From sequence record MT446421.1: a stretch of DNA of 64,000 nucleotides. The stretch is one strand, 5' to 3'. A program made the position numbers and the translations under genes. The stretch comes from Escherichia virus TH55. Below are positions 10,285 through 31,189 of this stretch, piece after piece. A model generated the notes under the pieces. That model had not been told where the DNA came from. It searched no databases and saw nothing but the letters and a program-made list of their open reading frames with translations. Every line of letters begins with the position of its first letter. Within the stretch, counting starts at the first letter, position 1.

Positions 10285-10298
10285 CTACTTTTTAAAAT

Positions 10299-10320
10299 AA
10301 AAAAGGACCCCGAAGGGTCC
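10299..10320 (-). terminator. rho-independent terminator
   Basis: Minus-strand RNA GGACCC-UUCG-GGGUCC followed by U6; directly after stop of 10321-10563. Confidence 0.65.
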
Positions 10321-10563
10321 TTAGATTACACTCCAAAAATTATGGAAGCGGATATCATCGATAGCCCAGTTAACAAACATGCGAGTTTGTTTGGGTGTTG
10401 GTTTACATGAGTACTTGTTATTGACCCGACGACCAGTTTCTCGACAGACTGCTTCGAGATACCATCGGCGGCCTTTATGAGGTCTTCCGTATGATAAGAA
10501 GACCTTGATTTCTTTGTTAACGATAATAGGAATTGTGGTTGTCAAGGTATACCTCTTCAACAA
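10321..10563 (-). CDS. hypothetical protein (80 aa)
   Basis: ORF followed by hairpin+U-run terminator; overlaps upstream gene by 47 nt, start uncertain. Confidence 0.4.
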   Translation of the reverse strand: MLKRYTLTTTIPIIVNKEIKVFLSYGRPHKGRRWYLEAVCRETGRRVNNKYSCKPTPKQTRMFVNWAIDDIRFHNFWSVI

Positions 10564-11527
10564 ACTTGTCCCAGAACTTCATGTCCACCTTCACAGGCAT
10601 ACCATTCTTAGCAGCCTGGATGGCCAGAACTTCAACTAAATCGACAGTATCTTCAAGAAGTTCTTGAACTTCTTTAAATGGTAATTCACCAGCTTTAATC
10701 AGCTTAATGATAGAGGCTTCACGCAATGGGAATACCAAGTCACCTGTTTGGTAGATTTCCATCAATTGATACCCTGCACGATATGCATGGCTCAGTGCTT
10801 TCCAGTCAATACCTTCATTAGCTTCAGCCTTACGAGCACGTTCACCATATTCGGCGTCGAGTTTATTCAGAGATTGCTTGAGCTCGATTAATGATAGAGT
10901 AGTTTGGTATTTACGACCGAGGACAGTATAGAACGTTTGAGGACCTGTTTTCTCATGGTTATGAAATACCCATTCGCAGAACTCGTTTTCAGGGAGCCTG
11001 TGTTTGATATCTTCTACCTTAGTACGTCGTTGCTTAGTGGAACCATCTTCTTGATAATCAACCCATTGTTCAGGAATCTGGTTAACAATTTCCAATACAC
11101 CACGCAGTGCAGCCAATCGAGAACCTTTAACACCATATTTGGAAGCTTGCTTACGGACGTACCCCAAATAGGCTTTCATGTTAGTTGTATAGAACCGCGA
11201 ACGGTTGTCTTGAATAAACTTCCATACATCTGGTAAATCGGATTTGACTACCAGGTCAGCCGGTGTGTGAATCATATCCAGAGCAACGGTTTCGCCTTCG
11301 GCTGCCAGTTTAAAGAAATATTTCAGGCTATAAAGTTCATGGTCAACATCATCTTTTGTATTTTTGGTAGCCGTGTTATTCGTGTTCAGGTTGGTATGGT
11401 TCATCGCGGTTCCGAGCAGGATATCTCGCGGATGAGGAACAAAGATTTCTTTAAAATCAACATCAGATTCCGGAGTGCTTGTTCCATAAAGATGGCTACC
11501 GAAGTAGCCTTTCATAACTGTTCTCAT
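10517..11527 (-). CDS. putative pol-beta-superfamily nucleotidyltransferase-like protein (336 aa)
   Basis: N-terminal hG[GS]-x10-DhDh signature (FGSHLYGTSTPESDVDFKEIF) typical of minimal nucleotidyltransferase fold; rest helical; family not identified. Confidence 0.5.
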   Translation of the reverse strand: MRTVMKGYFGSHLYGTSTPESDVDFKEIFVPHPRDILLGTAMNHTNLNTNNTATKNTKDDVDHELYSLKYFFKLAAEGETVALDMIHTPADLVVKSDLPDVWKFIQDNRSRFYTTNMKAYLGYVRKQASKYGVKGSRLAALRGVLEIVNQIPEQWVDYQEDGSTKQRRTKVEDIKHRLPENEFCEWVFHNHEKTGPQTFYTVLGRKYQTTLSLIELKQSLNKLDAEYGERARKAEANEGIDWKALSHAYRAGYQLMEIYQTGDLVFPLREASIIKLIKAGELPFKEVQELLEDTVDLVEVLAIQAAKNGMPVKVDMKFWDKFVEEVYLDNHNSYYR

Positions 11528-11976
11528 TTCTTCGCCTCAAAATGGATTACCGGGCACATCTTAGATTTACGAGCTTTGATATATTGAATGAAAACGTTTT
11601 CTTTAATTTCCTTTCCTTCGCGTTTGGCTAGAATGCGTTGCCATTCCTTTTCTTCTTTACGTAAATCATACCAGGACCATAAATTCATTAGACCGTACAT
11701 AATGCCAAAGGATACCACTAGAATAAGGGCCAGTGTAGCCAGTCCTAAAATAAATCCTAAGCTTAAACCAACCGGCATGCTTAATACAAAGAAATGCTCT
11801 AATACACCAGCCCCCGCGACAGTTAATCCAAAAACCATACTACCGATAAAAACGGCACAAACAAAACAAGCCCAAACCATTTTCCAGAAGTAAGCACACA
11901 AAGAGTGTGGTCGAGAATGACGGTCATAAAAACGGTCGTGTAATTTAACGTGCCAAGAGTTTGCATTGATAATCAT
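11524..11976 (-). CDS. membrane protein (150 aa)
   Basis: Three hydrophobic helices (e.g. VWACFVCAVFIGSMVFGLTVAGAGVL). Confidence 0.5.
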   Translation of the reverse strand: MIINANSWHVKLHDRFYDRHSRPHSLCAYFWKMVWACFVCAVFIGSMVFGLTVAGAGVLEHFFVLSMPVGLSLGFILGLATLALILVVSFGIMYGLMNLWSWYDLRKEEKEWQRILAKREGKEIKENVFIQYIKARKSKMCPVIHFEAKK

Positions 11977-12864: not shown

Positions 12865-13122
12865 TCATCTCATGCTCCTGTGCCAACAATTTCTTGGTTC
12901 ACGTTTAAAAATTTCATCATGCATTGATTGACAACCAACACAATATATCACACCTTTAATCGCTTGTCTCCGCGCTTCAGGAATTTTTTCGTCGCAGTCA
13001 AAACAGAATTCAGCAGACTCCCTTTCAACTGCAACTTGTGCTCGTGCGTGAACGATAGCGGCTTGGACAACCGCTTCCATCTCTAACTGTTCAGCACCAT
13101 CTTTTGCAAATCCAACAGCCAT
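12865..13122 (-). CDS. TraR/DksA-type C4 zinc-finger protein (85 aa)
   Basis: CFDC-x17-CVGC four-Cys motif at C-terminus preceded by helical region. Confidence 0.5.
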   Translation of the reverse strand: MAVGFAKDGAEQLEMEAVVQAAIVHARAQVAVERESAEFCFDCDEKIPEARRQAIKGVIYCVGCQSMHDEIFKREPRNCWHRSMR

Positions 13123-13776: not shown

Positions 13777-13806
13777 ATAGTACACCCTTTTTATGAGGAT
13801 GTAAAC
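13777..13806 (-). promoter_or_regulatory. T4-type early promoter
   Basis: Minus strand: -35 GTTTACA, 17 nt, -10 TACTAT; follows terminator 13816-13841. Confidence 0.6.
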
Positions 13807-13815
13807 CCCTAAATG

Positions 13816-13841
13816 AAAAAAGGCCCACCCGAAGGCAGACC
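13816..13841 (-). terminator. rho-independent terminator
   Basis: Minus-strand RNA GGUCUGCC-UUCG-GGUGGGCC (with G-U pairs) followed by U6. Confidence 0.6.
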
Positions 13842-13848
13842 TTTTGAA

Positions 13849-15843: not shown

Positions 15844-16016
15844 AATTCAATTCCATCCATAACCAAAATTCTTTTTCGTTGGGTCTTGAGAGCTTCGTTA
15901 GCCCGGTCATAATCTTCTTGACTACCGCTAGGCTGTAAAGCCGCTACCTTTTTGGCCAAGTGAATAAGCTTATCCAAGTTTTCAACAATACGTTCTTGTT
16001 CTTCATTCAGGCTCAT
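15840..16016 (-). CDS. hypothetical small protein (58 aa, below ORF-track cutoff)
   Basis: Hand-translated MSLNEEQERIVENLDKLIH...; stop overlaps next start (TTATGA). Confidence 0.3.
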   Translation of the reverse strand: MSLNEEQERIVENLDKLIHLAKKVAALQPSGSQEDYDRANEALKTQRKRILVMDGIEL

Positions 16017-16467
16017 AATCCACCACTATTAAATCAATATCAGGAGTAAACATGTCGATTAATTTAGAAACCTTTTCCCAATCTCCACCTGCAATACCAC
16101 AACCAATGCGAGGAATGTAAATTACCGGTTTAAACAAAAGGGTTTCTGCTTGTAGATTTAATTCTATCATACAATTTACTAAAGCACCATAATCAAGATT
16201 AGGGCCCGGTTCATATTGAGTGTACAAATTATAACACATACCAAACCCAGTAGGTTTATGTTTAAAAACAATAGACATATCGCCTAATTTATCACGAGAA
16301 CCATATTCAGTGGTGGTTTTATCTATTTCTAAAACTTTTGGATAGGCCTTCGCCAACTGTCCAGCTACACCAGAACCCATTGTGTGGAAGCAGTTACAAC
16401 CATGAGCAATAATATTGCCTTGAAGAAAGAGGGCGACGATATCGCCCTTAATATACTGGGTAATCAT
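16003..16467 (-). CDS. macro-domain protein (ADP-ribose binding / hydrolase fold)
   Basis: 154 aa; N-terminal GDIV...AHGCNC...MGSGVAGQL and C-terminal IPRIGCGIAGGDW match macro-domain motifs. Confidence 0.6.
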   Translation of the reverse strand: MITQYIKGDIVALFLQGNIIAHGCNCFHTMGSGVAGQLAKAYPKVLEIDKTTTEYGSRDKLGDMSIVFKHKPTGFGMCYNLYTQYEPGPNLDYGALVNCMIELNLQAETLLFKPVIYIPRIGCGIAGGDWEKVSKLIDMFTPDIDLIVVDYEPE

Positions 16468-16823
16468 TTAGAGTTCAATCCTCTATTATATGAATCCACT
16501 AACCTGTCAACCATACTGGTGCAGGCCGCCTTATATTTTGCACTTGAAAGAATGCAATCCATTTCAAATAATTTCTTTTCATATTTGTTGGATAATACAT
16601 TCTTTTTCAAAAGTGTATGTTCAACATCATTTTGGCCATCTTTATATGCCGCGGTGAGCTTGGCGCTGAACTGGATTACACAATCCACATTGCTTGGTGC
16701 GCAATAATCTTTAGCCGTCCTCGTTGCATATTCTATGATGCTGTTGTTGTCATCGCTCTGTACTGAAGCTATTCCTCCCATGCTGAATACTAACCCTATG
16801 GCTAAAGTGATAACTCTTACCAT
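16464..16823 (-). CDS. secreted/periplasmic protein (119 aa)
   Basis: N-terminal signal-peptide-like segment (MVRVITLAIGLVFSMGGIASVQS); four Cys. Confidence 0.5.
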   Translation of the reverse strand: MVRVITLAIGLVFSMGGIASVQSDDNNSIIEYATRTAKDYCAPSNVDCVIQFSAKLTAAYKDGQNDVEHTLLKKNVLSNKYEKKLFEMDCILSSAKYKAACTSMVDRLVDSYNRGLNSK

Positions 16824-31036: not shown

Positions 31037-31113
31037 TGGTCGGGGTGGTGGGATTCTAACCCACAACCTACGGTTTAGAAGACCGTTGCTCTATACAATT
31101 GAGCTACACCCCG
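31037..31113 (-). tRNA. tRNA-Arg (anticodon UCU)
   Basis: Hand-folded cloverleaf: 7-bp acceptor CGGGGTG/CACCCCG, D-stem GCTC/GAGC, anticodon stem ACGGT/ACCGT with loop CUUCUAA, T-stem GTGGG/CCCAC, encoded CCA; T-loop is UUAGAAU (A at conserved C56 position). Confidence 0.75.
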
Positions 31114-31189
31114 GGTGGCCCCATCCGGACTTGAACCGGAAACCTGCCAGTTATGAGCCGGATGCTCTAACCAATTGAGCTACAGGGCC
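31114..31189 (-). tRNA. tRNA with CAU anticodon (Met, or Ile if lysidine-modified)
   Basis: Hand-folded: acceptor GGCCCTG/TGGGGCC (two G-U pairs), D-stem GCTC/GAGC, anticodon loop CUCAUAA, T-arm TCCGG-TTCAAGT-CCGGA; abuts tRNA-Arg with no spacer. Confidence 0.75.

Follow-up and report, generated by a model that had tools for sequence, protein, structure and literature searches.

We analyzed a stretch of 64,000 nucleotides from Escherichia virus TH55 (MT446421.1; hereafter the window, numbered from its first letter) and focused on the minus-strand open reading frame (ORF) at 10517..11527. By sequence comparison, its protein is the Gaprivervirus ortholog of T4 NrdC.11, and it belongs to a long form of the RlaP nucleotidyltransferases that is a subfamily separate from the biochemically characterized RlaP enzymes. 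We obtained the orthology, the family assignment, the conservation of the catalytic motif, the predicted fold and a genomic link of this subfamily to RNA-repair genes. By analogy with the characterized enzymes, we consider it fairly probable that NrdC.11 adds nucleotides to RNA 3′-OH ends and supports tRNA repair by the phage enzymes Pnkp and Rnl1, with limited confidence; the chemistry is taken from enzymes of another RlaP cluster. nrdC.11 is a known gene; it has been annotated before, and the hypothesis about its role has been published, so that the window itself contributes no novelty. The analysis does bring out two points: the long form is a separate subfamily, and in bacterial RNA-repair operons it is paired with canonical RlaP.

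Identification of the nrdC.11 ortholog

Escherichia phage UPEC07 (Straboviridae, Tevenvirinae, Gaprivervirus) matches the region at 100% identity, and the protein is likewise 100% identical to UPEC07 QUL77657.1, annotated as "putative nucleotidyltransferase". T4 NrdC.11, whose gene adjoins mobD, shares 82.1% identity across all 336 residues (100% coverage), and the JS98 ortholog shares 90%. The gene carries the name nrdC.11 in SP18, JS98, and ime09; the synteny is as in SP18 and JS98, and the place in the nrdC–tk region is common to Tevenvirinae. Searches returned 2585 homologs at E ≤ 1e-3 in a 90%-clustered protein database, 3205 representatives at 50% clustering in a global protein set (835 with E ≤ 1e-30), and homologs in 1517 phage records, and on these counts we regard the ORF as a real gene rather than a chance reading frame. 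A nucleotidyltransferase prediction for nrdC.11 dates from 2006 (PMC1524935), and T4 NrdC.11 is classed under COG3541 as well as PF10127. In public records (GenBank, UniRef), many NrdC.11 homologs and neighboring nrdC.x genes are called "thioredoxin", a misannotation given that the label has spread from the gene name nrdC, and one homolog is called "HNH homing endonuclease".

The gene and the elements within it are as follows.
10517..11527, minus strand: nrdC.11 ortholog, long-form RlaP-family nucleotidyltransferase, coding sequence including the stop codon (ORF list, identity, Pfam and PHROG matches).
11234..11527, minus strand: N-terminal Pol-beta-type nucleotidyltransferase domain, residues 1–98.
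11453..11503, minus strand: catalytic signature FGSHLYGTSTPESDVDF, residues 9–25, G10-S11...D22-x-D24 (read from the sequence).
11336..11350, minus strand: D60-V-D62-H-E64 with D62 as candidate third metal-binding carboxylate (conservation, hhalign, model strand 61–67).
10904..11068, minus strand: beta-rich insert, residues 154–208, variable in sequence and length among relatives (model, alignment).
10778..10807, minus strand: signature DWKALSHAYR, residues 241–250, of the long-form C-terminal helical domain (conservation).

Family membership and catalytic residues

A preliminary description made from the letters alone had read the ORF as a Pol-beta-type nucleotidyltransferase with a GS-x10-DxD motif. 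Both points were borne out: the ATG-started, 336-residue translation, which begins MRTVMKGYFGSHLYGTSTPESDVDFKEIF, contains G10-S11, ten further residues, and D22-V-D24, and the family could now be named. The protein matched Pfam PF10127 (RlaP), whose cutoff is 23 bits, with a score of 48.1 bits (E 1.6e-12), over residues 8–133 only, corresponding to profile positions 25–141 of 249, i.e., the first half of the model. In PHROGs it matched phrog_388, "nucleotidyltransferase", at 3.7e-131. Conservation was evaluated in full-length relatives at 35–54% identity, comprising an alignment of 138 sequences and a set of 145 representatives. PF10127 was matched by 137 of the 138 aligned relatives.

Across the 138–145 relatives, residues G10, G15, S21, D22, D24, Y131, H247, R250, and P267 were invariant; the DxD aspartates, loss of which in homologs had been named as grounds for abandoning the nucleotidyltransferase reading, are thus among the most constant positions of the protein. 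At least 90% conservation was found at S11, N56, D60, D62, D84, Y123, Q127, K130, G135, Y227, G228, and R230, and in the C-terminal part at D241, W242, K243, A244, K278, and G280. Within the 145 representatives, D60 was conserved in 97% and D62 in 94%. When the long form was aligned by hhalign with canonical RlaP of about 255 residues, residues 8–98 were matched with a probability of 94.7% (E 6e-8); there, D62 takes the position of the Asp that never varies in the LDxNGWD motif of canonical RlaP, and D84 that of a Glu likewise without variation. We regard D62, which opens strand 61–67, as the likely third metal ligand. The RlaP pattern hG[GS]-x9-13-DxD plus a third conserved Asp is thus represented by G10-S11, D22, D24, and D62.

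Predicted structure

An AlphaFold model built on the 138-sequence alignment was accepted, with a mean predicted local distance difference test score (pLDDT) of 94.1 and a predicted template modeling score of 0.82. An earlier model based on 18 close relatives (65–90% identity) was dropped, its pLDDT being 70 overall and below 50 in the catalytic domain. The accepted model is confidently predicted to adopt the nucleotidyltransferase fold, the lack of which had been set as a reason to reject the initial reading. It is predicted to comprise an alpha/beta catalytic domain extending to about residue 98, helices at 99–149, a beta-rich insert at 154–208, and a helical region at 213–335, so that the Pol-beta-type fold plus helical domain required of an RlaP is present in the prediction. 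The preliminary description had expected about 280 residues of helical sequence after the motif. Helical segments are indeed predicted, interrupted by the five strands of the insert (154–158, 164–168, 184–191, 195–202, and 205–208; pLDDT 94–97). The insert is poorly conserved, and relatives are gapped at 156–166.

No detectable similarity of the long form to canonical RlaP outside the catalytic domain

In the hhalign comparison only the N-terminal 100 residues or so, that is, the catalytic domain, aligned with canonical RlaP. Between the C-terminal halves the best local match paired K243-x3-H247-x2-R250 with K-x3-Y-x2-R and was not significant (E 0.094). The C-terminal 240 residues or so, comprising the helices and the beta-rich insert, appear specific to the long form. 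A search with the DWKALSHAYR motif from this part, whose signature form is DWKAxSHAxR, retrieved 156 cellular and 380 viral relatives.

Genomic neighborhoods of the long form

Cellular relatives were collected by a pattern scan with one genome per species, which yielded 80 full-length relatives at 31–52% identity, many of them on megabase contigs. The next gene on the same strand was a full-length canonical RlaP in 22 of the 71 evaluable loci (e.g., 272 bits to PF10127), and canonical RlaP lay within 5 kb in two further loci. Loci with canonical RlaP as the next gene include L016, L018, L019, L029, L035, L039, L040, L049, L062, L064, L068, L070, L078, L083, L085, and others. RtcB was encoded within 6 kb in 10 of the 80 cellular loci, where chance would give roughly 0.2, together with Pnkp-like genes in three and an Rnl1-like gene in one. 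The association with RNA-ligase and RNA-repair genes expected of RlaP is therefore present for the long-form subfamily in these 80 loci.

Two loci illustrate the association. In Nitrosospira sp. (L035:1555-12057), the gene order is Ro60 (TROVE plus vWA), an unknown gene of 105 aa, RtcB, RtcA, long RlaP, canonical RlaP, Hen1, a MoxR AAA gene, and a DUF2201 metallopeptidase/vWA gene. This arrangement is an apparent large RNA-repair operon, in which Pnkp was not detected within the stretch although Hen1 was present. On a 4-kb contig from a Bathyarchaeota metagenome-assembled genome bin (L009:62-3803), long RlaP is followed by an NT5C nucleotidase, Pnkp, an unknown gene, and an Rnl1-type ligase; the Pnkp is 37% identical to phage PseT, so that relatives of the T4 repair enzymes lie side by side. 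This contig is probably viral.

Among 80 viral loci, canonical RlaP was found beside the long form in none. A few distant viral loci encoded RtcB (two), an Rnl1-like protein (one), or a Pnkp-like protein (one). The 4.4-kb metagenome contig of P0251 carries a remote long-form relative (35% identity) flanked by a PcfJ-family gene and a Gad2-family (anti-Gabija) gene, which may represent an anti-defence neighborhood. For two distant representatives whose surroundings were inspected, the contigs measured just 2–4 kb.

Proposed role in tRNA repair

RNA repair was discovered in T4, where tRNA-Lys cut by PrrC is restored by Pnkp and Rnl1. RlaP owes its name to an association with RNA ligases, and its predicted function was to restore lost nucleotides before ligation; a tRNA-repair role for phage RlaP has already been proposed (PMC7824862). 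A preprint of December 2025 characterized two RlaPs from Pseudomonas whose genes lie between rtcB and rtcA; the two proteins transfer one or two nucleoside monophosphates (NMPs), or deoxynucleoside monophosphates, onto RNA 3′-OH ends and do not act on DNA or protein (PMC12776372). These enzymes prefer Mn2+ and the broken end of a cleaved-tRNA mimic, and they partly rescue the aminoacylation of a tRNA missing one anticodon-loop nucleotide (PMC12776372). The same work proposed that RlaP counteracts nucleases which, like RloC, first cut and then remove a nucleotide, and it explicitly placed T4 NrdC.11 in the RlaP family (PMC12776372).

For NrdC.11 itself we propose the following course of events; which RNA is the substrate, how many nucleotides are added, which metal is used, and how anticodon nucleases come in would be as for canonical Pseudomonas RlaP, from which these points are carried over. 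The N-terminal domain would bind two divalent metal ions, probably Mn2+, and a nucleoside triphosphate (NTP) via D22, D24, and D62, while G10-S11 would contact the NTP phosphates. One or two NMPs would then be transferred to the 3′-OH of a broken RNA held in a cleft formed with the basic C-terminal domain, whose conserved residues include K130, R230, K243, H247, R250, and K278. In the infected cell, NrdC.11 would in this way replace nucleotides removed from cleaved tRNA by RloC-type host anticodon nucleases, after which phage PseT (Pnkp) and RnlA (Rnl1) could heal and reseal the tRNA to a functional molecule. The distinct C-terminal module and the pairing with canonical RlaP suggest that this role is related, not identical, to that of canonical RlaP.

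The proposal is supported by the family assignment, the conserved catalytic residues, the RNA-repair neighborhoods of the long form, and the presence of the partner enzymes RnlA, polynucleotide kinase (PseT), and a second RNA ligase (RnlB) in the UPEC07 genome. Several observations weigh against it. The genes of these partners lie at distant positions, so that none of rnlA, pseT, or rnlB stands beside nrdC.11 in the phage, and canonical RlaP was not found elsewhere in that genome. T4 tolerates deletion of nrdC.11–mobD.3 on laboratory hosts (PMC9825161), and nrdC.11 is therefore dispensable. The characterized Pseudomonas RlaPs fall in cluster 1a of the RlaP sequence similarity network, whereas T4 NrdC.11 falls in cluster 5 (PMC12776372). 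Since the C-terminal 240 residues have no detectable similarity to canonical RlaP, substrate choice could differ, and the adjacency of the two forms in bacteria suggests that they are not redundant. Finally, searches of the Protein Data Bank (PDB) with the single protein and with a profile returned nothing relevant and no solved RlaP structure among the entries searched, the PfRlaP crystal structure of the preprint evidently not being one of them, which keeps the fold comparison at the superfamily level.

In bacteria, the long form typically stands directly upstream of canonical RlaP inside RtcB/RtcA/Hen1/Ro60 operons, an arrangement that suggests a two-enzyme division of labor. As a more tentative idea, which we hold to be possible but rather doubtful, the long form of the NrdC.11 type may be an enzyme with a function of its own that shares the work with canonical RlaP, and T4-like phages may have kept the long form only, as an unrecognized third component of Pnkp–Rnl1 tRNA repair against nucleotide-excising anticodon nucleases. 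The two forms could have different specificities for nucleotides or RNA ends, or they could act as a heteromer restoring a defined nucleotide. Because the long form is a separate subfamily and is paired with canonical RlaP, the Pseudomonas results are not to be assumed for NrdC.11.

If NrdC.11 does replace the nucleotides removed by RloC-type nucleases, this would complete the T4 pathway and would explain the retention of the gene in about 1500 sequenced phages. Whether it is a third member of the classical RNA-repair pathway of T4 can be tested directly.

Alternative functions

The preliminary description had left the choice between RNA-modifying and nucleotide-signaling enzymes. The evidence favors RNA modification, and signaling is correspondingly less favored. 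Within RNA modification, the addition of nucleotides to RNA 3′ ends could serve attack or regulation rather than repair, either by blocking the acceptor ends of host tRNAs in the manner of MenT/AbiEii or by tailing host or phage transcripts and altering their stability. We regard this as unlikely, although neither the catalytic fold nor the predicted chemistry would have to be different. Canonical RlaP has little NTP specificity and, when given total RNA, also labels rRNA and full-length tRNA (PMC12776372), and the gene sits among host-takeover genes of the T4 early region, both of which would suit such a role. The recurrent cellular neighbors of the long form are, however, RtcB, RtcA, Hen1, Pnkp, Rnl1, and Ro60, not toxin–antitoxin partners. 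A comparison with PADLOC gave no significant defence or toxin match (best E 0.004, from 17 residues at the GS-DxD motif, with zero passing stretches), and the MntA model of NCBIfam scored 16.5 bits against a cutoff of 60.

A second alternative is that the protein makes or consumes a nucleotide signal, as a template-independent oligonucleotide or cyclic-nucleotide synthase (HalB, CD-NTases) or as an anti-defence nucleotidyltransferase (Gad2). We give this little credence. The similarity to HalB is confined to the generic catalytic core at 14% identity, no Pfam SMODS/CD-NTase or Gad2 model was matched at E ≤ 0.1, PADLOC gave no significant match, and the cellular context is RNA repair. The adjacency of a membrane-protein gene in the window also counts against it, being lineage-specific because T4 has mobD at that place.

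It is equally improbable that NrdC.11 nucleotidylates a protein or a small molecule, in the manner of aminoglycoside and lincosamide enzymes or of the MNT antitoxins that AMPylate HEPN RNases, for instance to inactivate a host HEPN nuclease: the structural matches are at the superfamily level only (low Z, TM-scores of 0.2–0.3), NTP_transf_2 scored 15.4 bits against a threshold of 21 with MntA likewise below threshold, and canonical RlaP left E. coli proteins unlabeled (PMC12776372). All three alternatives share a resemblance limited to the superfamily level, and the repair-gene context argues against each of them.

The individual families tried and set aside were the CD-NTases of the cGAS/DncV (SMODS) type, with no Pfam match at E ≤ 0.1 and the PADLOC result given above; MNT/MntA, for which both subthreshold matches were confined to GS-DxD and no HEPN gene was adjacent; the Gad2 anti-Gabija family, with no match to Pfam model PF26128 at E ≤ 0.1; the CCA-adding enzymes, with no Pfam or fold-search match; and the ANT family, with TM-scores of 0.24–0.29 and no sequence-level match. 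The repair role in tRNA metabolism proposed for NrdC.11 remains our preferred reading.

Gene context and transcription unit

The signals and genes around nrdC.11 are as follows.
11535..11538, minus strand: Shine–Dalgarno sequence GAGG, 7 nt 5′ of the nrdC.11 ATG (read from the sequence).
11524..11976, minus strand: gene for a 150-aa membrane protein, 5′ of nrdC.11 (ORF; phrog_944, "membrane protein", 3e-54).
10321..10545, minus strand: small gene of 74 aa from TTG 10545, DUF7279/phrog_8921 (Pfam 5.8e-8; phrog_8921 1.5e-38).
10293..10322, minus strand: intrinsic terminator closing the unit (8-bp stem with 5 G-C pairs, UUCG loop, U-run).
13777..13845, minus strand: probable upstream unit boundary, with a terminator at 13845..13818 followed by an early-type promoter-like site at 13805..13777 (consensus matches).

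The stop codon of the membrane-protein gene overlaps the nrdC.11 start as ATGA. This multi-pass phrog_944 protein is translationally coupled to nrdC.11 through the ATGA overlap in Gaprivervirus and JS98-like phages, its gene is annotated in UPEC07, SP18, and JS98 as well, and the protein had zero PADLOC matches. About 20 nt into nrdC.11, at codons 7–12 (11494-11509, minus strand), lies a perfect hairpin GGCUAC-UUCG-GUAGCC (−9.2 kcal/mol), which sits exactly on the G-Y-F-G-S codons. The GC-rich synonymous codons that form it are retained in many T4-like lineages, down to about 68–72% protein identity; the stem is weakened by G.U pairs in T4-type sequences and is lost where the Ser codon is TCN. 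This hairpin could be a translational or RNA-stability element, or it could be a by-product of codon choice.

Downstream, the preliminary description had drawn a small overlapping ORF at 10321-10563 that is co-transcribed with nrdC.11 and ends in a terminator. The gene is real, as judged from its DUF7279 and phrog_8921 matches, and only its start needed revision: TTG 10545 has an AAGAGG Shine–Dalgarno sequence 6 nt upstream, is the start used in the UPEC07 record, and coincides with the beginning of the PHROG profile, which makes it a more likely start than 10563. With this start, the small gene overlaps the 3′ end of nrdC.11 by 29 nt. Some records call it "tail needle knob", apparently an artefact of annotation. 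The terminator, a strong one, was confirmed directly 3′ of the small ORF's stop codon, where the minus strand reads AAGGACCC-UUCG-GGGUCCUU from 10322 to 10303, followed by UUUUUAUUUU; its RNA fold of −15.5 kcal/mol corresponds to z = −2.4 against shuffled sequences. Since the two genes lie on the same strand in overlapping frames and the first terminator occurs only past the small ORF, the arrangement fits co-transcription of both up to this terminator.

The next terminator upstream of nrdC.11 on the minus strand is that at 13845..13818, and the promoter-like site at 13805..13777 reads GTTTACA-17-TACTAT, which is of the T4 early type. A scan of the unit found no MotA-box middle promoters between this site and nrdC.11. 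The layout fits a unit of about nine small genes, of which nrdC.11 and the small ORF would be the last two. We infer the label "early", also used in the preliminary description, from the place of the gene in the T4 nrdC–tk early region and from the early-type promoter-like site. The same region contains a gene for a TraR/DksA-type C4 zinc-finger protein (12865-13122, minus strand) and a macro-domain (tk.4) gene on the minus strand, at about 16000-16470 as judged from its offset in the UPEC07 record. The only tRNA genes that ARAGORN detected in the window are tRNA-Arg(TCT) and tRNA-Met(CAT), which lie back to back at 31037-31189 on the minus strand.

Comparison with known systems

T4 NrdC.11 occupies the same place in the nrdC–mobD–tk early region, and the same strand, as the gene in the window. 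The flanking genes differ: in T4 the mobD homing endonuclease lies 5′ of nrdC.11 where the window has the membrane-protein gene, and the window has the small DUF7279 gene 3′ of nrdC.11, nrdC.10 being absent. Canonical RlaP of Pseudomonas fluorescens and P. aeruginosa belongs to the same Pfam family, and its GS, DxD, and third Asp align with those of the long form; both consist of an N-terminal catalytic and a C-terminal helical domain, and both are tied to RNA-repair operons. They differ in length (about 336 aa for the long form versus about 255 aa) and in network cluster (5 for NrdC.11 versus 1a), with activity demonstrated for the canonical form only.

More distant systems share the catalytic core. 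HalB, the oligodeoxyadenylate synthase of Hailong (PDB 9dbh), is 14% identical and lacks an equivalent of the long C-terminal module, and no HalA-like partner is present here. The two-domain enzymes of the kanamycin nucleotidyltransferase ANT(4′), LinB, and 3c18 type gave whole-protein TM-scores of 0.24–0.29, and they act on small-molecule acceptors. Class II CCA-adding enzymes also combine a Pol-beta-type core with template-independent addition to a tRNA 3′-OH, and large phages use CCA-adding enzymes for tRNA end repair (PMC7824862). These enzymes act on the acceptor end, whereas the predicted target of NrdC.11 is a broken internal end.

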